Source: a virus
Lineage: Duplodnaviria > Caudoviricetes
Reading direction: 5' to 3' (one strand)
IMG/VR virus record: IMGVR_UViG_3300007508_000433
Coordinates: 1-61,933 of that record
Length of the DNA stretch: 61,933 bases
The position numbers were made by a program, and so were the translations under genes. Each line of letters opens with the position of its first letter. Position 1 is the stretch's first letter. Below, piece after piece: positions 4,633 to 53,036 of this stretch. A model generated the notes under the pieces. It had not been told where the DNA came from, searched no databases, and saw only the letters and a list, made by a program, of their open reading frames with translations.

Positions 4633-4647
4633 GTGTGGGGTGATTTT

Positions 4648-5394
4648 ATGAGTGATGATGAATCCCTTTCTGATGAAGAAAGAAACGCTAATGTTGCTAA
4701 GGCTGAAGCTGAAGCTAAGAAGGCTGCTGCTGAGGCCGAGAAGGCTTTGGCTGAGGCTCGTAAAGCAAATGCTGAGGCGGATCAGGCTGAGTTGAGTGTT
4801 CGTTTAGAGCACATTGAGGTTGATCAGGCTGAGAATGCTGCTGATAATCGTGCTGCTGGTGATGAGTTTCACCATATTTACCGGTTTGTTGGCGGTGTTG
4901 ATGGTGGCAGTGTTGAGAGGTGTATGAAGAAGTTGACTCAATGGTCTCGCCTCGATCCGGGGTGTGATATTGAGGTCATATTTTATTCTCCGGGTGGCGC
5001 TGTAATCTCCGGGCTTGCATTGTTCGATTATATAAGGTCTCTTGCGAATCAAGGGCATCGTATAACAACAGGTGCTACTGGTATGGCTGCGAGTATGGGC
5101 AGCATCCTTGTTCAGGCCGGTGATCATAGATGGATGTCTGCTGAGGCTTGGTATATGATTCATAGGGCCGCTTTTGGTGCGGCAGGAAAAACTTTTGAGA
5201 TCGAAGATGAAGTTGAGTGGGTTAAGAGGATCGAGAGAAGAATTATCGCTATCTTTTGTGCTAATTCTAAGCTGACTCCTCAAAAGATTAAGAGGAACTG
5301 GCATCGTAAAGATTGGTGGTTGGATGCAGACGAGTGTCTTTCTATTGGGCTGGTCGATGAGATAAGAGGCGGGTTTAGTGAAGGTATGGATTGA
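4648..5394 (+). CDS. clpP: ClpP-family serine protease with N-terminal coiled coil
   Basis: FYSPGG, AASMGS (Ser), MIH (His), DWWLDADE (Asp). Confidence 0.85.
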   Translation: MSDDESLSDEERNANVAKAEAEAKKAAAEAEKALAEARKANAEADQAELSVRLEHIEVDQAENAADNRAAGDEFHHIYRFVGGVDGGSVERCMKKLTQWSRLDPGCDIEVIFYSPGGAVISGLALFDYIRSLANQGHRITTGATGMAASMGSILVQAGDHRWMSAEAWYMIHRAAFGAAGKTFEIEDEVEWVKRIERRIIAIFCANSKLTPQKIKRNWHRKDWWLDADECLSIGLVDEIRGGFSEGMD

Positions 5395-5697: not shown

Positions 5698-6645
5698 ATG
5701 GATGACGTAAAGATTAATACCAGTAAGGTTGTAACGTTGTCGTTGGGTGCAGATCCAGACAGCAATACAGTCAACGCTACCTTGTACCACGAATTTGATG
5801 ACAGTAGTGTGGTGCAGGCTTCTACTGCGTGTACACGCACGGCTGCTGGTACTTATACTATTACGTATGGTGAATCTGCGACTAATTCCAACAATTACGT
5901 ATTGTCTCAAGGTGGGGTTCATAAAGTGGTTTTTTCATATTCTATTAGTTCAGTTGCGTATACAAGCGAGTCGTATATGAATGTTTACACTCCTTATATA
6001 ACATCAGCGCAGTTCTTTTCTAATAATTCTGATATGCAGGCAAACTACGGGGCCAAATTTGATGATCTGGAGAAGAAGGCCAGAAGGATCATTAACACGT
6101 TTTGCGGCCAGACTTTTGATTATTATGGAAGTAAGAGTTTCATTATTGATGGCACAGATAACCGTTATTTGAGGCTGCCTTATCCTATGGATACGTTGAC
6201 AACCGTTGTGGCTGATTCGGGGGATAGCGATGCTGAGACTATTCATGATAGTTCTGACTCTACATTGAGTAATTTAGAAAAGTTTAATTCTATGGGGAAT
6301 TTCGGCTCATCGTATTCGATCAGATTCAAGAATAAGGTTTCTGATACCAGGAAGAGCTACATTGCTAGGACCTATTCTAATAAGTTTAATAGTAAGTCTG
6401 ATTACAAGGTGACTGGCAGTTTTGGCTGGCGTTATGTCCCTAGCAACGTTTTAAATGCTGCGGAGTTGCTGATTCTGGACTTGATGAATGATGATGTGGA
6501 GTTTAGGCGTCATCGTGTTAACTATGTTGCTATGGACTCTACTCGGTATAGGTTTGATGGTGATTACTTTGGCTCTACTGGCAATGTAGACGCCGACATT
6601 CTTTTGATGGATTATACTTTATATGTAATGGATTATGTGGGGTGA
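5698..6645 (+). CDS. Head-to-tail adaptor
   Basis: ARRIINTFCGQTF, VTGSFGW..VP..V..AA and TGN..AD..L motifs; position. Confidence 0.7.
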   Translation: MDDVKINTSKVVTLSLGADPDSNTVNATLYHEFDDSSVVQASTACTRTAAGTYTITYGESATNSNNYVLSQGGVHKVVFSYSISSVAYTSESYMNVYTPYITSAQFFSNNSDMQANYGAKFDDLEKKARRIINTFCGQTFDYYGSKSFIIDGTDNRYLRLPYPMDTLTTVVADSGDSDAETIHDSSDSTLSNLEKFNSMGNFGSSYSIRFKNKVSDTRKSYIARTYSNKFNSKSDYKVTGSFGWRYVPSNVLNAAELLILDLMNDDVEFRRHRVNYVAMDSTRYRFDGDYFGSTGNVDADILLMDYTLYVMDYVG

Positions 6646-42071: not shown

Positions 42072-43802
42072 ATGAGTGAATTCTATGGTCTAAACGTTGA
42101 GTTTGATGATCTTGATAAACTTTTAAGCCATGAGGAACTTGACATGGAGCCTGTTCCTCTTGACGTATTTGTAAGTGATCGTAAATACCTTGGTCTACCG
42201 CCATTGTCTGACATCCAAACTGAGATTGTTAAGATGAGTACGCAGGTATTTAATGTGGAAACGTTGAAGAAGCTTCATGGCGATAAGGAAGGGCAGCGTA
42301 TATATGATACATACACTCAAAACGAGGTAATCTGCCAACTTGGCAAGGGTTCTGGCAAGGACCATTGTGCTAGGATAACAATGGCCTACACCATCTATCT
42401 TATGCATTGTCTACGAGATCCTCTTGGGTACTATGGTAAAGCAACTGGTGTGTATATTGATCTCCTGAACCTAGCTGTGAACGCACAGCAGGCTCAGAGG
42501 GTATTTTTTGAACCATTTAAGAACCTCCTTCTCTCGTCTCCGTGGTTCAACGAACAGGGCTTCGAACCAAGGGTATCAGAAATTTTCTTCTTTTCACGCC
42601 CCGTGCGCTGTTTTTCTGGTCACTCTGAGTCAGAGGGGTGGGAGGGGTATGAGGTAATGACTATCATCTTGGATGAGATCTCAGCCTTTAAGACAGACTC
42701 TGAGCTGAAAGGTGATGTCAGATCTAAGGGCTCTGCGTCTGCCATTTACAACATGAGTAAGTTGTCTGTGATGTCTCGCTTCCCTGAGGTCGGTAAAACT
42801 ATCCTGTTGTCCTTCCCCCGTTATCGAGGAGACTTTATTCAACAGAGGTATGATTCTTCTATAGCTTTAGATGAGCCTAAGACATGGGCTATCAAGGCTG
42901 CTACTTGGGAGGTTAATCCCACGATTGAGCGCGAGCAGTTGGAGTCAGAATATATCCGCAATCCAATTGAGGCTAGAGCAAGGTTTGAATGTGAGCCTCC
43001 ACATATGGAGGATGCATTCTTTAGGGATGCGGATTTGGTTAGGAATGCTTTCAACTTTGCTGAGGACCCCATAGAAGAAGATGGCTCATTCAAGTCTTGG
43101 TTTAATGGCAGTGATGATTTTACTAGGTTCATTCATGTCGATCTAGCTGTCAAGCGTGATCGTGCTGCATTGTCTATGGTGCACTGTCCCGGCATGAAGA
43201 GTATTAACACTGGCCTTGGAACTGAGCAACTTCCGGTGCTTAATGTAGACTTGGTTTATTCATGGCAAGCACAGCCGGGTGCAGAGATTAACTTTAGTCA
43301 GATCAGAGCGATGATAGTGGACTTGTGTAGGAGATTCTCTGTCGCCATTGTAAGCTTTGATCAATGGCAGTCGGTAGAGATGATTCAGTCCCTGCGCGCA
43401 ATGGGTATTAATGCAGACTTTCATAGCGTCAAAAAGACAGACTACGATACGCTGATGACGGCTATCTATGATAAGAGATTGCGGGGGTATTGGAATGAGA
43501 TCCTAGTTGAGGATGAACTATTGAAGCTTAAACTGCTCCGTGGTAACAAGATTGATCACCCTTCATCTGGTTCTAAAGATCTTGCTGATGCTGTTGCCGG
43601 GGCCGTGTTTCAGTCTGTGCAACACATGCAGATAGATCAAGAGGTTGAGATTGAGTTTGAGACATTCTCTCATGAGCTGTACGAAGATGAAGAAGATTCT
43701 GCGGAACATAGGGTTAAGAAGAACCTAACCGAGGATAGAAGCGAGTCTGAGATAGACGCTGGGATGCCAGATGAGATCCAATCTTGGCTTGACCTTGTTT
43801 AA
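42072..43802 (+). CDS. terL: Terminase large subunit
   Basis: LGKGSGKD; ILDE; HVDLA; SFDQWQS; IDHP..GSKDLADA. Confidence 0.88.
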   Translation: MSEFYGLNVEFDDLDKLLSHEELDMEPVPLDVFVSDRKYLGLPPLSDIQTEIVKMSTQVFNVETLKKLHGDKEGQRIYDTYTQNEVICQLGKGSGKDHCARITMAYTIYLMHCLRDPLGYYGKATGVYIDLLNLAVNAQQAQRVFFEPFKNLLLSSPWFNEQGFEPRVSEIFFFSRPVRCFSGHSESEGWEGYEVMTIILDEISAFKTDSELKGDVRSKGSASAIYNMSKLSVMSRFPEVGKTILLSFPRYRGDFIQQRYDSSIALDEPKTWAIKAATWEVNPTIEREQLESEYIRNPIEARARFECEPPHMEDAFFRDADLVRNAFNFAEDPIEEDGSFKSWFNGSDDFTRFIHVDLAVKRDRAALSMVHCPGMKSINTGLGTEQLPVLNVDLVYSWQAQPGAEINFSQIRAMIVDLCRRFSVAIVSFDQWQSVEMIQSLRAMGINADFHSVKKTDYDTLMTAIYDKRLRGYWNEILVEDELLKLKLLRGNKIDHPSSGSKDLADAVAGAVFQSVQHMQIDQEVEIEFETFSHELYEDEEDSAEHRVKKNLTEDRSESEIDAGMPDEIQSWLDLV

Positions 43803-47578: not shown

Positions 47579-47848
47579 ATGAATAACGAAGCCATTAGGG
47601 TTTGTGCTGAGATAGCATATTCTACTGAGAGTGGCGCTGTCCATTCCGACGTTTGTCCACCCGGACATTTGTTTGAGAATATCGACAGCGAGGAGCGTAA
47701 GCTGTTGCATCAGTTTTTGGATGAATGGCTGAACGAATCTGGCGGCACTGGTTGTTTCTTTGTGGGTGATAGTGACTACTATCGCTTTATTCCTGATCAG
47801 AGCATTATTCCTGCGTTGGCGAAACTAATAGATCGGAGTAGATGGTGA
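47579..47848 (+). CDS. Hypothetical protein
   Basis: ORF with RBS. Confidence 0.55.
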   Translation: MNNEAIRVCAEIAYSTESGAVHSDVCPPGHLFENIDSEERKLLHQFLDEWLNESGGTGCFFVGDSDYYRFIPDQSIIPALAKLIDRSRW

Positions 47849-49389
47849 GTTATATTAAGATAACTAACACTACATCAAGCGTGCCCAGATTGTATCTGGA
47901 GATTCTTGGTGTATCGACCAAGCGTGACAGCGACATTACTATCGGCCAGTTTGGTTCTGGTACAAAGTTTGCTCCTATTTACGCTTTGCGTGAGGGGTTG
48001 GAGTGGATTAATACTGGCTTTGATAGTCATGGTGGTTACACTATGTCGTATCAGGTTTCTGATGATAATGATGAAGGCCTGGATCTGGTCGAGTTTGTCT
48101 ATGAAGATATGGACGGACATATAACAAAAAAGCCTTCATCTTATTCTTTGGGTGCTGGCGAACTTGGATGGAATCATCCCTTCCAGATATTCCGTGAGGC
48201 TTTTGCTAACGCTCTGGATGCTCACTATGAGTTTGACGAAGGCTATTCTATTGACAGGGTTGATGAGATTGAACCTCCTGTTGAGGGTGAGTTTTCTGTT
48301 TACCTTACTGCTTCTGATGGTCTTATTGAAGTTGTTGATAACTTTGATAAGTATTTCTCCTTGGAGCGCACTCCTCTCTTTGAGGATAGCAGGGGGAACA
48401 AGGTTTATGAAAAGCTAATGTCTGTGCCTTATGATGGTGTTAGAATCTACCATAAGGGTGTTCTTGTTTATGGTGGAGAGCTTGAGCATGACGATACCCC
48501 TTCATTGTTTGATTATGATTTGAAGGAAGTTAGCCTTAATGAGGAGCGTCGTTTGAGTGATGTTTCTGCTAACGAGATATATACCATTGCTAAGATTATC
48601 GGTGAGAATGAGCATTACACTAACAGCACTGGAATAAGGCCGGTTGTTGATAGTATCATTGACAACTGCAATGAAAGTGAGAGCGGTAAGCCTGACGGCG
48701 TGTGGGAGTACAACTTTTCTTACGCTTTCAGGATGCAGCATTGGTATGATGTTCAGCCTCAAGATAGCGATTCATTCGGTAATCAGTTTGTGGCTGCGAT
48801 GACAGCCAAGTATTGTGATGAGACATATAGCGATATTGCATTTGTTAGCGATAGAGCTGCGGCATTCTATGAGATTGAGATTAATTTGAATGAGCGTGGG
48901 CGTAAAGCTATACCAGTTTCTGACTCTATGTATGAACTTCTAAACACTACTGGTGCTAAGGAGTGGATGGATAAAAACATACTTGGCGAAGAGTATGACA
49001 CTCCCTTTGTTGAGTTGGATGGTATTGATCTTGAGGTGTTTAACTTTGCATATGAGAGTGTCGCTGAATATGACACTGACATATTGAACATCCCCGTAAA
49101 GATTATGCAAAGCACAGCTTACAATACCGGTATTCAGGGTAAGGCTATGAATGTGCATGACGACAGCAAAAGAACTGTTATTGCTTTGAGTCAGGCATTG
49201 ATTGAAGGTCGGAATATGCAGCAAATTATTGCTACTATGCTACATGAACTTGATCATGCTGTTACTGGTGCTGCAGATAACACTAGGGCTTTCCGCGACG
49301 CTGCAGATAATCGCCTAGGTGATCTAATCATCAGGCACTACTGTAGCAAGGTGGATTTGGCTAAACTAGTTAACAAGACGGAGGTGTAA
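47842..49389 (+). CDS. GHKL-like ATPase fused to C-terminal HExxH metallopeptidase-like domain
   Basis: G.STKR..IGQFGSGTK; REAFANALD; LHELDH. Confidence 0.65.
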   Translation: MVSYIKITNTTSSVPRLYLEILGVSTKRDSDITIGQFGSGTKFAPIYALREGLEWINTGFDSHGGYTMSYQVSDDNDEGLDLVEFVYEDMDGHITKKPSSYSLGAGELGWNHPFQIFREAFANALDAHYEFDEGYSIDRVDEIEPPVEGEFSVYLTASDGLIEVVDNFDKYFSLERTPLFEDSRGNKVYEKLMSVPYDGVRIYHKGVLVYGGELEHDDTPSLFDYDLKEVSLNEERRLSDVSANEIYTIAKIIGENEHYTNSTGIRPVVDSIIDNCNESESGKPDGVWEYNFSYAFRMQHWYDVQPQDSDSFGNQFVAAMTAKYCDETYSDIAFVSDRAAAFYEIEINLNERGRKAIPVSDSMYELLNTTGAKEWMDKNILGEEYDTPFVELDGIDLEVFNFAYESVAEYDTDILNIPVKIMQSTAYNTGIQGKAMNVHDDSKRTVIALSQALIEGRNMQQIIATMLHELDHAVTGAADNTRAFRDAADNRLGDLIIRHYCSKVDLAKLVNKTEV

Positions 49390-49394
49390 CTGCT

Positions 49395-49610
49395 ATGACA
49401 GATATGTCGTTTCAAGCAACGTATATTGTTTCTGATGAAATTGTTGATCAGATACGCTTATCGTTAGAGCACATATGGTGGGCTGCTCCAGAAGATATCC
49501 CTGAGGATAATGAGAAGGCCGTACAGTTCTGGGTTGATGTGGTCTTGGATTCAACTATTGACAATGAACATGAAGTCCTACTAGATATGGATGAGGTGGA
49601 CTATGAATGA
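49395..49610 (+). CDS. Acidic hypothetical protein
   Basis: GGAGG RBS. Confidence 0.55.
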   Translation: MTDMSFQATYIVSDEIVDQIRLSLEHIWWAAPEDIPEDNEKAVQFWVDVVLDSTIDNEHEVLLDMDEVDYE

Positions 49611-50049
49611 AGTAGTGTTTGATTCTGATACCAACTATTTTTGTGATCGTTGTGGTAAAATAACTAAGAGTATGTTCCCAGAACTTGGGCATAGTGCCCG
49701 GACTCAGATTAAGGCCGGGTTGCACATCGAGGTCATTGGTTATTATGGTGGCTTCTATGACACTTATCTGGATGATGGACCTGATGTTATTCACTTCTGC
49801 CACGATTGTTCTCTATGGTTTGCTAGAGAGGTTGGCGCCATTTCTGAAAGAAGCAAGGGCGGTCATCCTTGCGACAGCGAGTCGGAGCGGTGTTGCGAGT
49901 ATGCGTGGTCTCCAGAAGAAGAGACTATGGAGATACTTAGCGATCCTGAATGGATGAAGTCCTTGGCCGAGGCTCAGGAGGATGTTGATTCTGGTAATCT
50001 GGTAGATTTCAAAGATATTGAAACATCGACAATGAACCGGGAGGTTTGA
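49603..50049 (+). CDS. Zn-binding protein with C-terminal Phd/YefM-antitoxin-like segment
   Basis: CDRC..GYYGGF.D..CHDC; tail EETMEILSDPEWMKSLAEAQEDVDSGNLV. Confidence 0.6.
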   Translation: MNEVVFDSDTNYFCDRCGKITKSMFPELGHSARTQIKAGLHIEVIGYYGGFYDTYLDDGPDVIHFCHDCSLWFAREVGAISERSKGGHPCDSESERCCEYAWSPEEETMEILSDPEWMKSLAEAQEDVDSGNLVDFKDIETSTMNREV

Positions 50050-50246
50050 TTATGGCTAAGGCTAGAAAGAAAAGGCGCGTTGTTCCTAAGTCTAAGCAGC
50101 GCTATCAGGTAGAGACAAGTGGTAAGGATTATGTGATTGTCGATACTGGCGCCACAACTAAGAGATATCGTAATATCGAGACTTTGAAGAAAAGTAGCGA
50201 TGCTATTCGTAAATGCCGTGAGTTTAACCGTTACCTTGAGGGGTGA
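50046..50246 (+). CDS. Basic hypothetical protein
   Basis: GGAGG RBS; K/R-rich. Confidence 0.55.
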   Translation: MIMAKARKKRRVVPKSKQRYQVETSGKDYVIVDTGATTKRYRNIETLKKSSDAIRKCREFNRYLEG

Positions 50247-50251
50247 AGTAA

Positions 50252-50632
50252 ATGACTGATACTGCAGAAGTAACGAGTGATCAGGATGCCAATGATCATT
50301 ATAGTAGCTATACCGAATTGGTGGGTGATTATCTTGAAGTTATCAATGACAATGTTGATGATGATGACGCCCTTGAGGAAAATCTTCACTATCTAGAGTG
50401 CATGATGCTTGCAAGAGATGAGCATAGGGTTATTGATGTTTGTCTTGCTACAGGTGGGCCAGCGGTTCATGTCTTATACCACATTAAAGACAAAGAGATA
50501 ATAAACATTGTATTCAAGTTCGTAGACTGGTTCTACGTAAAAGAGTTTAAGGTCAGCCCTGGCTCTAAAGAGTGGGCTATCTGGGAAGATGCAGCGCAGT
50601 ACTTTATCATAGATATTCTTGAGGAGTGGTGA
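50252..50632 (+). CDS. Acidic hypothetical protein (LATGGP motif)
   Basis: ORF with RBS. Confidence 0.6.
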   Translation: MTDTAEVTSDQDANDHYSSYTELVGDYLEVINDNVDDDDALEENLHYLECMMLARDEHRVIDVCLATGGPAVHVLYHIKDKEIINIVFKFVDWFYVKEFKVSPGSKEWAIWEDAAQYFIIDILEEW

Positions 50633-50717
50633 TGAATAACGAGCTGGCTTTGTTGAAGAGAAGCCCGCAGAGGATTATCCCACAGAGAGGCCACATTACG
50701 AATAGCTCTAACGGTTT

Positions 50718-50840
50718 GTCGGGCTAAGTCTGGTAATCCTTAATCCAGATTAAGGACAGCCTGCATGTCATTTGATCGTTTACGGTCAGTGACTTGTTAA
50801 CGAGTTTTCGTCATCGTGTCCCAAAGGTTGTCCGCCCGAC
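50718..50840 (+). ncRNA. Candidate structured RNA (multi-stem junction)
   Basis: GTCGGGC/GCCCGAC closing stem; AGTCTGG/CCAGATT; GGACAGCCT/AGGTTGTCC; inner hairpins; lies in a coding gap. Confidence 0.45.
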
Positions 50841-50870
50841 TGTTCTATACTAATAGTGATTGGAGATCAC

Positions 50871-51014
50871 ATGGAAGATGATGAGAGTTTTATTATACTG
50901 GATGAAGAGAGGTGGGATGAGTTGATGGCCATGCTTGATGCTCCCCCTAAACGTCTCCCAGGTCTATTAAAGCTAATGCGGTCAAAGATGCCGTGGAGTG
51001 ATGATGGAAAATAA
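50871..51014 (+). CDS. 47-aa peptide resembling the C-terminal half of DUF1778/TacA antitoxins
   Basis: GGAG RBS; IILDEERWDELMAMLDAPPKRLPGLLKLMRSKMPW. Confidence 0.6.
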   Translation: MEDDESFIILDEERWDELMAMLDAPPKRLPGLLKLMRSKMPWSDDGK

Positions 51015-51052
51015 GCATACACATCCCCCGATAAAGGGGTGCTTGGTGCCAG

Positions 51053-51307
51053 ATGAGTACATGGCTGATTGGCTTAATTGTCATGTTTGTCATGACGACC
51101 TTGATGCATACATGGAGGAAGATAATGAATCTATATGATGATATTGCACAGGAAGAACACTGGGACTTTTTACGATCTCTTGGTGATGCCGTGAGAGATG
51201 TTGAGCTTAATATTAGGCTTATACATGAGCCCCCACCTCCTCCTTCCGAGGAAGAATGGGCTGCTATTATTGCAAGTTATGAGGCGGATTCTTATGATGG
51301 TCGGTAA
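51053..51307 (+). CDS. Hypothetical protein, N-terminal hydrophobic helix
   Basis: ORF; alternative internal start MNLYDD with GGAGG. Confidence 0.5.
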   Translation: MSTWLIGLIVMFVMTTLMHTWRKIMNLYDDIAQEEHWDFLRSLGDAVRDVELNIRLIHEPPPPPSEEEWAAIIASYEADSYDGR

Positions 51308-51506
51308 GAAACTATATGTATATGATCCTATAGGTCATGACTTGTATGACGGTAGAACGTCATGTATTGCTGGCACTGTTGTTGTTAAGGTGCAGCCTCC
51401 GGGGTGTCCTGTGAATGGAACAATGAAGCATTGCTATATTGCAGACGCTGAAACTGGGGGTTTCTATGGCCTAGTTTTGGAGAATAGCTTGGTGCCTTGT
51501 GAGTAG
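51294..51506 (+). CDS. Conserved phage hypothetical protein
   Basis: V.KVQP.GCP.NGTM.HCY..GLV..NSL motif. Confidence 0.6.
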   Translation: MMVGKKLYVYDPIGHDLYDGRTSCIAGTVVVKVQPPGCPVNGTMKHCYIADAETGGFYGLVLENSLVPCE

Positions 51507-51954
51507 TAATGATAGCGCACCAGAAGGTATGGTGGATGTGCAGGATGCAGTAACGTCCTTGCATCTAATATCTACTATGATCGGCAGTCATCGTCATAAG
51601 GGGTTCAATAGTATCCTTAGGAGTTTGCGCTCTATTGGGTTTTCTGATGAGACATCATATTACATGATGTGCTATGTGTTGTGTGTTGTCTATCACGAGT
51701 TTGAATCTTCTGTAAATGATTCGATGGACTTGCTGGAGCGGGTGGACTTCCAGTTGGAGCAACTGTTTCAGTTAAATGAGTTCGAGCCATTTGTTGAGGC
51801 TGTAAGAAATATCTATCATGTTGATGATGAGACTCCGTTTGGGGCTATGAGGCCTGCTTGGAAGGAGCATTTTAAGTCAAGATACAACAAGTATTGGAGG
51901 AAGTATTTGAACGGGCATCCCAAGTCAATACCTTACTATGATAAGGAGAAGTAG
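51499..51954 (+). CDS. Hypothetical protein
   Basis: Coupled ORF. Confidence 0.55.
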   Translation: MSSNDSAPEGMVDVQDAVTSLHLISTMIGSHRHKGFNSILRSLRSIGFSDETSYYMMCYVLCVVYHEFESSVNDSMDLLERVDFQLEQLFQLNEFEPFVEAVRNIYHVDDETPFGAMRPAWKEHFKSRYNKYWRKYLNGHPKSIPYYDKEK

Positions 51955-52079
51955 TGCTATTCTTATCAATAAGGTTTTGGATAATGATCTCCTTTACTGG
52001 AGTGATAGTTTTGGCTATTTTGCCGATATTTCTTCTAATAGGACTTCTAATAATAGTGCCATTGATTTTAGCAACTTAG
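51954..52079 (+). CDS. Hydrophobic membrane micro-protein (41 aa)
   Basis: AAGGAG RBS; MLFLSIRFWIMISFTGVIVLAILPIFLLIGLLIIVPLILAT. Confidence 0.5.
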   Translation: MLFLSIRFWIMISFTGVIVLAILPIFLLIGLLIIVPLILAT

Positions 52080-52088
52080 GAGGATGCA

Positions 52089-52265
52089 ATGAATGCACCA
52101 TATGGTTGGGCGGAAGAAGATGGGTTTGAAGAGGAAACACATTTTGATAAGTTGGTTGATAGAGTGTGTGAAGCTATAGATGGCGTAGTCTTTTATCGTT
52201 GCGTGTATACATTTACTGCTTTTTTTATCGGTTATATGCTGTGGCAAGCGATGAGGGTTATCTAA
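52089..52265 (+). CDS. Small protein with C-terminal TM helix (58 aa)
   Basis: AGGAGG RBS; TAATG coupling to next gene. Confidence 0.55.
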   Translation: MNAPYGWAEEDGFEEETHFDKLVDRVCEAIDGVVFYRCVYTFTAFFIGYMLWQAMRVI

Positions 52266-52567
52266 TGGGAGCGTTTGAGGACTATTATATTGTGGAGTAT
52301 AGATATGCAGTCAAGGTCCCTATTACTAAGGCTAATAGAAGCTCTGTGCCTGCTGCTGTTTCTACTGCTAATAGTATTTGCGAAAGGATACACGGCTTCA
52401 GGCCGTCAAATTGGTTTGCAAGAATCTTTAAATATTCAACAAAGGATGGTGTGATTGGAGTAGACGAAGAATTTTTCTATAACCCTCATGGTGCTACTGT
52501 GAGGACTGTTGATGCTAACTGGATAAACCATGAAGAAATGCTAAAGGAGCAAAAAAATGACAATTAA
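52265..52567 (+). CDS. Hypothetical protein
   Basis: Coupled ORF. Confidence 0.55.
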   Translation: MGAFEDYYIVEYRYAVKVPITKANRSSVPAAVSTANSICERIHGFRPSNWFARIFKYSTKDGVIGVDEEFFYNPHGATVRTVDANWINHEEMLKEQKNDN

Positions 52568-53036
52568 TGTAACACAAACGGATGCAGCATTTGATGTAGA
52601 TATAAATTATGATGATCTTGCGAGCGATCTTGTACCGCATTTCATTGACTATATCGATGATGCTATATTGACTGCAGTTGATGATTCTTTGGTTGATGCG
52701 ATTGATAGATATATCCAAAGTGGTCTAGCTGCAGATATTGATATTGAGGAAAAAATAGGCGACTTGCTTGATGGCGTTGGAACGGGAGATCTTTGCTATC
52801 TTGGCGAGAAGTTTAGAAGTGCCATCGAGGTCATACTGGAGCAGCATCTTGATCTTGGTGCGATATTTGGGCGCAATCTTGCATATGCTGGCAAGAGGCT
52901 TGCTATTAATGTAGAAGTTGTTGATATTGAACAGCCTACGATGGTTGATCCTACGCCTGATGTTGATCTTACCACTGCCACGGTTGTAAGTACAACGCCA
53001 AGTGCAACAGCAGATGTTTCAGCATCTATTATCTAG
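52557..53036 (+). CDS. Very acidic hypothetical protein
   Basis: AAGGAG RBS; Asp-rich. Confidence 0.6.
   Translation: MTINVTQTDAAFDVDINYDDLASDLVPHFIDYIDDAILTAVDDSLVDAIDRYIQSGLAADIDIEEKIGDLLDGVGTGDLCYLGEKFRSAIEVILEQHLDLGAIFGRNLAYAGKRLAINVEVVDIEQPTMVDPTPDVDLTTATVVSTTPSATADVSASII

Follow-up and report, generated by a model that had tools for sequence, protein, structure and literature searches.

A TacA/DUF1778-like protein without an RHH domain in a marine tailed phage: a putative stand-alone antitoxin peptide

Our analysis supports the assignment of a 47-aa ORF, located in a phage contig, as the toxin-binding half of a DUF1778/TacA antitoxin devoid of its RHH domain. The contig, an IMG/VR record of 61,933 bp analyzed over its whole length (hereafter, the window), has a relative in L002, a 68.9-kb marine contig that is syntenic with it but diverged, and the comparison of the two indicated that the TacA-like ORF is a conserved gene under purifying selection in two diverged phages and not a chance ORF. 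As judged by computation, the protein is well founded both as a gene and as a domain, while its function is putative.

The phage record and the 47-aa ORF

The record is linear, belongs to a tailed phage and was estimated by CheckV to be ~59% complete. Its long ORFs, nearly all on the + strand, encode an endolysin, a head maturation protease, a 1,792-aa tape-measure-like protein and tail fibre proteins, as well as an exonuclease, a DnaB-like helicase, a primase and a DnaE-type polymerase. The large terminase gene (42072-43802) lies ~38 kb downstream of the head protease gene (4633-5394) and of the tail genes, with 18 kb of small ORFs behind it, an unusual position for which the missing 41% of the genome may be the explanation. 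From ~44 kb to its end, the record consists of a block of small, tightly packed ORFs, which includes the TacA-like gene and in which only one of the 20 ORFs scanned with Pfam scored above the cut-off (DUF1281_C). The first 2 kb (1-2000) have a G+C content of 63%, compared to 42 to 50% in the remaining contig, and the protein encoded there by the ORF at 579-1808 is rich in glycine and contains an fn3 domain; this G+C-rich region could be a recently acquired host recognition gene or an assembly chimera. Neither tRNAs nor a PF00589 integrase were found in the 61.9 kb of this ~59% complete record.

The same stretch is carried by eight DNA runs from marine/seawater metagenomes belonging to two studies, seven of the eight runs being possible sources, and contigs of 99 to 109 kb in these runs also carry it; no RNA run was listed among the carriers. 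The actinobacterial host suggested by the first-pass annotation found no support in these marine runs, the sole link to actinophages being the DnaE polymerase, whose closest cultured relatives are Streptomyces phages, at only 38% identity. A genome scan gave four full-length relatives of the 47-aa protein, in Stenotrophomonas (two), Terracidiphilus and Rhizobiaceae, with 46 to 53% identity, which are uninformative with regard to the host.

The ORF read-out placed the 47-aa ORF on the + strand at 50871-51014, where it had been claimed, with an ATG at 50871 and a TAA at 51012-51014 (protein sequence MEDDESFIILDEERWDELMAMLDAPPKRLPGLLKLMRSKMPWSDDGK); the identical protein is present in public protein collections. 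The proposed ribosome binding site was also recovered, as a GGAG Shine-Dalgarno-like motif read from the sequence at 50862-50865 (+ strand), 5 nt before the ATG, and the L002 ortholog has a GAGAGG 7 nt ahead of its own ATG. A GTG at 50856, which would give a 52-aa form, was disfavored as the start codon, because both the L002 ortholog and the database gene calls correspond to the 47-aa ATG form. No acceptable -35 element accompanies the hexamer TATACT (50846-50851) upstream of the ORF, and a consensus scan detected no + strand promoter before the ORF, so that we rejected the proposal that the gene has a promoter of its own. The accompanying notion of early expression was not sustained either, no promoter being detected and the L002 gene overlapping the ORF upstream of it, with zero intergenic space. 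In both phages, the antisense frame is also free of stop codons (50867-51022 on the - strand of the window, 51 aa), which we regard as an incidental consequence of the sense frame; the + frame is favored by the Pfam match, by the orientation of all neighboring genes and by the substitution pattern.

Correspondence to the C-terminal half of TacA

The Pfam profile PF08681 (TacA1/DUF1778) matched the 47-aa protein with an E value of 1.4e-7 and 31.8 bits, above the gathering cut-off of 21, showing that the likeness to DUF1778 proteins pointed out in the first-pass annotation is not due to chance. The alignment pairs residues 4 to 37 of the protein with positions 43 to 76 of the 80-position profile, i.e., with its C-terminal half only. 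When the entire record was searched in six frames, stop codons being tolerated, the profile matched at a single place, the ORF at 50871-51014 (E value, 4.7e-8), and the RHH half (profile positions 1 to 42) was found nowhere in the record in any of the six frames, nor did the 26 open codons upstream of the ATG contain RHH-like sequence. The reported absence of the RHH domain was thus confirmed both by the position at which the match begins and by the six-frame search, and, according to the profile alignment, the predicted protein starts exactly where the RHH domain of a full antitoxin would end. The PHROGs collection gave only a weak match, to phrog_10531 (no assigned function; E value, 0.021), and an NCBIfam search with the 47-aa protein gave none.

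According to the KacA-KacT structure paper, KacA residues 52 to 86 wrap the toxin by means of a strand, beta-B (52 to 56), a helix, alpha-C (57 to 70), the linker 71PPAP74 and a second helix, alpha-D (75 to 86). Taking this description together with the alignment and an AF2 model, the features of the toxin-wrapping segment all have a counterpart in the 47-aa protein, namely, a strand, a helix, a Pro-Pro, a second helix and a terminal Trp, encoded on the + strand. Residues 6 to 10 (SFIIL; 50886-50900), assigned from PDB alignments and the KacA description, would be the counterpart of beta-B; they are unstructured in the AF2 monomer model, and in KacA the beta-B strand pairs with the beta-sheet of the toxin. 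Residues 12 to 23 (50904-50939), helical in the AF2 model and bearing W15 and M19, are the putative alpha-C, and residues 25 and 26 (50943-50948) form the Pro-Pro linker between the helices, which is invariant, as is L32, in all 26 rows of alignment A5. In the same alignment, D4, M19, L22, D23, L35 and W42 are present in at least 90% of the rows. Residues 30 to 42 (PGLLKLMRSKMPW; 50958-50996), the likely counterpart of alpha-D with a predicted helix at 30 to 37, are the stretch best conserved with respect to L002, 12 of 13 residues being identical.

The AF2 monomer, modeled with the 26-row alignment, had a mean pLDDT of 83.8, with helices 12 to 23 and 30 to 37 flanking the PP linker. Foldseek gave only two PDB hits, with TMq values of 0.61 and 0.59; both are chains of TacA2 in its complex with TacT2, and their E values, 1.1 and 1.7, do not reach significance with a query of this small size. 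By sequence, six of the seven PDB chains found at an E value of ≤10 were DUF1778/TacA/CopG-type antitoxin chains, headed by 9ilr_B (E value, 0.0034) and 7f37_C (E value, 0.006). Three of the matched chains are C-terminal fragments of 39 to 46 aa, one of them deposited as "TacA1 antitoxin peptide," so that a folded chain of this length and register is already on record. The KacA-KacT structure paper lists W61, V64, A67 and I68 as hydrophobic toxin contacts and M65, I68, Q70 and R77 as required for neutralization, which is retained upon removal of the first 10 residues of KacA. When the Pro-Pro motifs are aligned (offset of 46), W61, M65 and P72 of KacA would correspond to W15, M19 and P26 of the phage protein. 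Prediction of a complex between the 47-aa protein (alignment A5) and the GNAT toxin of the metagenome locus L010 (alignment A4), a stand-in from an unrelated organism run without controls, gave values of 0.20 and 0.01, the mark being 0.32, and speaks neither for binding nor against it.

Conservation, relatives and the toxin partner

Between the window and L002, 29 ORF pairs could be aligned at 37 to 87% amino acid identity, a few of them being alternative-frame ORFs inside larger genes. The L002 ortholog of the TacA-like gene is likewise a 47-aa ORF, found at the corresponding position and matched by PF08681 with 23 bits (profile 41 to 76). Twenty-seven of 43 residues are identical between the two proteins, dN is 0.26 and dS is 1.26, giving an omega (dN/dS) of 0.2, with a Fisher P value of 4e-4 for synonymous versus nonsynonymous changes; the neighboring genes, compared likewise, have similar or lower dN values (0.11 to 0.26). 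The first-pass annotation had named a lack of evidence for translation or conservation as a ground for refutation; for conservation, the comparison with L002 provides such evidence. The 90% cluster of the protein comprises the identical sequence and two one-residue variants, on 25 contigs in total (22, 2 and 1), the longest of 88.7 kb. Over 3,201 nt, a single difference separates the window from the contigs of four runs: G50911A, an R14-to-K substitution that yields the sequence of the database representative; since these contigs represent a near-clonal population, they add nothing independent on selection.

The 3' end of the TacA-like ORF is overlapped by 11 nt by an ORF for a 44-aa Cys/His-rich protein (51004-51138, + strand), the L002 ortholog of which (6129-6266) is 67.5% identical and has a 4-nt overlap with its TacA-like neighbor. 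This acidic protein of 44 to 45 aa, with the pattern C-x13-CHxCH, is conserved together with the TacA-like gene in both phages; it has no Pfam or PADLOC family and gave only sub-threshold, zinc-ribbon-like leads in the Atlas. Upstream lies a noncoding gap of 238 nt (50633-50870), which contains a palindrome with 8-bp arms, CCTTAATC-CA-GATTAAGG, at 50738-50755. The blastn homology between the window and L002 stops at window position 50652 and restarts at 50898, defining an indel hotspot (50653-50897 in the window versus L002:5270-6021) immediately upstream of the TacA-like gene. On the L002 side, the hotspot holds two additional ORFs (98 and 89 aa) without a Pfam family, the second of which overlaps the start of the TacA-like gene. 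The homology break and the overlapping ORFs locate the TacA-like gene on the border of a variable region and, at least in L002, inside a multigene operon. On the window side, the hotspot holds a truncated ORF of 31 to 33 aa whose start resembles that of an L002 ORF. Elsewhere in the region, the window encodes a 515-aa protein (47842-49389) that is 70% identical in L002 and has sub-threshold SprT-like and WLM zinc protease matches at residues ~433 to 480, an HExxH-type region; it is possibly a phage metalloprotease.

We then considered how widely the short form occurs. When 1.84 billion representatives were searched exhaustively with phmmer, 13 proteins were returned at an E value of ≤1e-3, including the protein's own cluster, and 7 of the 12 others were 46 to 64 aa long. 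A Pfam scan of 10 of these proteins (P0015 and P0016 being left out) showed that P0009 alone spans the whole profile and that the other nine match its C-terminal part only. Several of the short forms are found on contigs of 0.5 to 1.4 kb, and one clusters with a 169-aa protein, suggesting that some of them are probably truncated gene calls. One of the matches, P0012 (151 aa, from a metagenome), joins a TacA C-terminal half (13 to 49) to an Xre/MbcA/ParS C-terminal toxin-binding domain (103 to 148) and thus has two neutralizing modules and no DNA-binding domain. When only proteins of 18 to 97 aa were considered, a profile search gave 2,944 matches, and those among the 120 listed were mostly 88 to 97 aa long. 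The nearest full-length relatives of the 47-aa protein are only 35 to 54% identical to it.

Among viruses, P0008, P0012 and P0014 were not found in IMG/VR, and a search of IMG/VR with the 52-aa form and alignment A2 gave no confirmed relative beyond the phage's own lineage, a lineage that the search may omit. A tblastn search with the 47-aa protein in 50,697 phage records (E value, ≤1) and a megablast search with window positions 49000 to 53000 were both without a match. An N-truncated homolog in another phage was thus found in the 47-aa ortholog of L002 and none in the 50,697 phage records, so that the trait rests on two related lineages. The phage lineage is thus the one clear case of the short form on long contigs.

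A full-length TacA query recovered six records from the phage collection, among them two Salmonella whole-genome contigs and one 2-kb record. In Dolichospermum phage Dfl-JY45 (PP438435.1, 209 kb; L034:2001-2781), a DUF1778 gene is followed by one for an annotated NAT_SF protein. For the Dfl-JY45 antitoxin, the record gives the name "ICP1 protein, Vibrio phage ICP1 Orf50," a hint that ICP1 might itself possess a DUF1778-like gene. In Synechococcus phage Ssp-JY39 (PP438429.1; L035:2064-2576), the DUF1778 gene is followed by an unannotated 170-aa ORF with a TTG start, which displays the N-terminal motif of TacT-like GNAT toxins, and on this motif the Ssp-JY39 record probably contains a complete toxin-antitoxin pair. 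As the DUF1778 proteins of these cultured phages are full length and encoded beside a GNAT ORF, decay of such a module would provide a natural origin for the window gene.

The first-pass annotation had also noted that no cognate toxin accompanies the ORF. In agreement with this, the 61.9-kb window contained no match at an E value of ≤1 to the GNAT families PF13302, PF00583, PF13508 and PF13673, a result that applies to these 61.9 kb of a record ~59% complete by CheckV. Since three of the four families (PF13508, PF13673 and PF00583) detected the toxins adjoining full-length relatives in three of three loci tested, this negative result is meaningful. No GNAT-type ORF is located next to the TacA-like gene in the window or in the 12 kb around the L002 ortholog, and the ORFs downstream of the gene, of 44, 60 and 72 aa, have no Pfam family.

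For comparison, a scan of metagenome contigs yielded 32 loci, 30 of which were evaluable, the antitoxin gene being cut by the contig end in two. In 28 of the 32, the ORF was at least 88 aa long and had an RHH-type N-terminal half, as judged by eye and confirmed by Pfam for L022 (profile 1 to 77). A GNAT-type ORF was found immediately downstream, i.e., starting between -30 and +80 nt relative to the antitoxin stop codon, in 25 of the 30 evaluable loci; 23 of these ORFs were complete (162 to 182 aa), two were cut by the contig end, and 21 of the 25 align at 37 to 85% identity. The loci without a downstream GNAT ORF were the phage ortholog L002, L031 (75 aa, no RHH), L022, L030 and the fragment L033. 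L031, a 2.1-kb soil-type metagenome contig, carries a second RHH-less form, a 75-aa PF08681 match (1142-1369; profile 33 to 76) that lacks the RHH half and is not followed by a GNAT ORF.

Putative function and relation to known systems

The explanation that we favor, still tentatively, is that this stand-alone peptide may serve as a decoy in the infected cell, neutralizing a TacT-like GNAT toxin for which the phage has no gene of its own. The conserved module corresponds to the beta-B/alpha-C/Pro-Pro/alpha-D segment which, in TacA, AtaR and KacA, wraps the GNAT tRNA-acetylating toxin, and the peptide would bind such a toxin produced by the host, by a resident mobile element or by a rival element. 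Binding would keep the acetylation of aminoacyl-tRNA from halting translation once the labile host antitoxin is lost, and, being without an RHH domain, the peptide could neither dimerize on an operator nor repress it and would be a purely stoichiometric decoy. What we infer is that the peptide binds a toxin, which toxin this is and that the phage profits from it. Compared with the original proposal that the phage keeps only the neutralizing half as an early anti-defense protein, what stands is the toxin-binding half, the missing RHH domain and the lack of an adjacent toxin; early expression, a promoter of its own and an actinobacterial host do not.

The premise that GNAT/DUF1778 modules are abortive-infection defenses received no backing, as PADLOC has no model for them and no report of their restricting phages was found in the literature searched. 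In one review-style introduction, TacT is named only among tRNA-modifying toxins. A report on four K. pneumoniae GNAT-RHH pairs describes only one non-cognate rescue and cites a study in which there was none among three Salmonella pairs; since GNAT-RHH pairs are thus mostly specific, a generic decoy is not expected to work broadly.

Several other explanations have to be weighed against the decoy. We consider it rather unlikely that the TacA-like, fold-on-binding motif has been repurposed for another partner, such as a housekeeping GNAT acetyltransferase or the 44-aa Cys/His protein. The overlap and co-conservation of the TacA-like and 44- to 45-aa Cys/His ORFs in both phages would fit such a role, as would the joining of the same module to an Xre/MbcA/ParS toxin-binding domain in P0012 and the N-terminal regions without a Pfam match carried by P0006, P0007 and P0010. 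However, the phage protein has kept W15, M19, L22, P25, P26, L32, L35 and W42, residues conserved across canonical antitoxins, which indicates a canonical partner surface, and the downstream 44-aa protein has neither a family nor toxin features. That the protein is instead the antitoxin of a phage toxin encoded outside the 61.9 kb, or of a non-GNAT partner, within a split or rearranged addiction or superinfection-exclusion module, appears improbable. Such a toxin gene could lie in the part of the genome missing from the record, the same stretch being found on the contigs of 99 to 109 kb, and cultured cyanophages do carry complete DUF1778-GNAT pairs. Against this, type II partners were adjacent in 25 of 30 evaluable loci, no GNAT-size ORF lies beside the gene in the window or in the 12 kb around its ortholog, and an antitoxin that controls its operon normally retains the RHH domain.

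Least plausible, and in our view very improbable, is that the ORF is a leftover, without function, of a phage-borne tacAT module that decayed, its reading frame having stayed open by chance. The existence of complete phage-borne modules, the location of the gene's 5' end at an indel junction relative to L002 and the occurrence of several short database relatives on contigs of ≤1.5 kb, where they may be truncated gene calls, are compatible with decay. A remnant, however, would not be expected to have the same length and position in two lineages separated by a dS above 1, with an omega of 0.2, to keep a start codon and a Shine-Dalgarno-like motif in both phages or to be identical at 12 of the 13 C-terminal residues, and neither an RHH half nor a toxin has left a trace in any frame of the window.

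Returning to the decoy, its wider form, in which marine phages would use a disordered 47-residue TacA half as a stoichiometric decoy against GNAT tRNA-acetylating toxins, is possible yet doubtful in our estimation. If it were true, TacAT/AtaRT/KacAT-type modules, whose natural role is debated, would be abortive-infection defenses in nature, and the neutralizing segments of type II antitoxins would be excisable and carried by viruses as portable anti-toxin cassettes, of which the P0012 fusion of TacA and ParS C-terminal parts may be a two-headed version. According to a 2022 NAR paper on GNAT toxins, most toxin-antitoxin systems still have no known function. A neutralizing half kept alone under purifying selection would be indirect evidence, from the virus side, that GNAT toxins matter in infection, and the 47-aa peptide would be a small, easily synthesized reagent for testing that role. 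If the peptide is active, the idea of orphan antitoxins as counter-defense would extend from enzymatic antitoxins to minimal type II peptides. No report of a phage-encoded, RHH-less DUF1778 protein was found in the literature searched, in which subscription titles are thinly covered.

With TacA, AtaR and KacA, the 47-aa protein shares the toxin-wrapping segment and the conserved W, M, L, PP, L, L and W positions; it differs from them in having no RHH DNA-binding and dimerization domain and no adjacent GNAT toxin and in being encoded within a block of small phage ORFs. Dfl-JY45 and Ssp-JY39 resemble the window in carrying phage-borne DUF1778 homologs, but their antitoxins are ~92 aa long (89 to 97% of the TacA query) and accompanied by a GNAT-type ORF of 165 to 170 aa, whereas the window has the C-terminal half and no toxin. 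Among the antitoxin mimics of phages, T4 Dmd acts against RnlA/LsoA. Phages also carry orphan antitoxin-like proteins directed against DarTG (PMC11825919), and the idea of a phage orphan antitoxin has been put forward for the DarTG of V. cholerae (bioRxiv 10.1101/2023.12.14.571748). The DarG-like/NADAR proteins and Dmd are phage-borne antitoxin homologs or mimics without a toxin, a description that fits the window gene within the 61.9 kb of its ~59% complete record; they are, however, enzymes or unrelated folds acting against DarT-type or RNase toxins, whereas the window would encode a domain-minimized type II proteic antitoxin.
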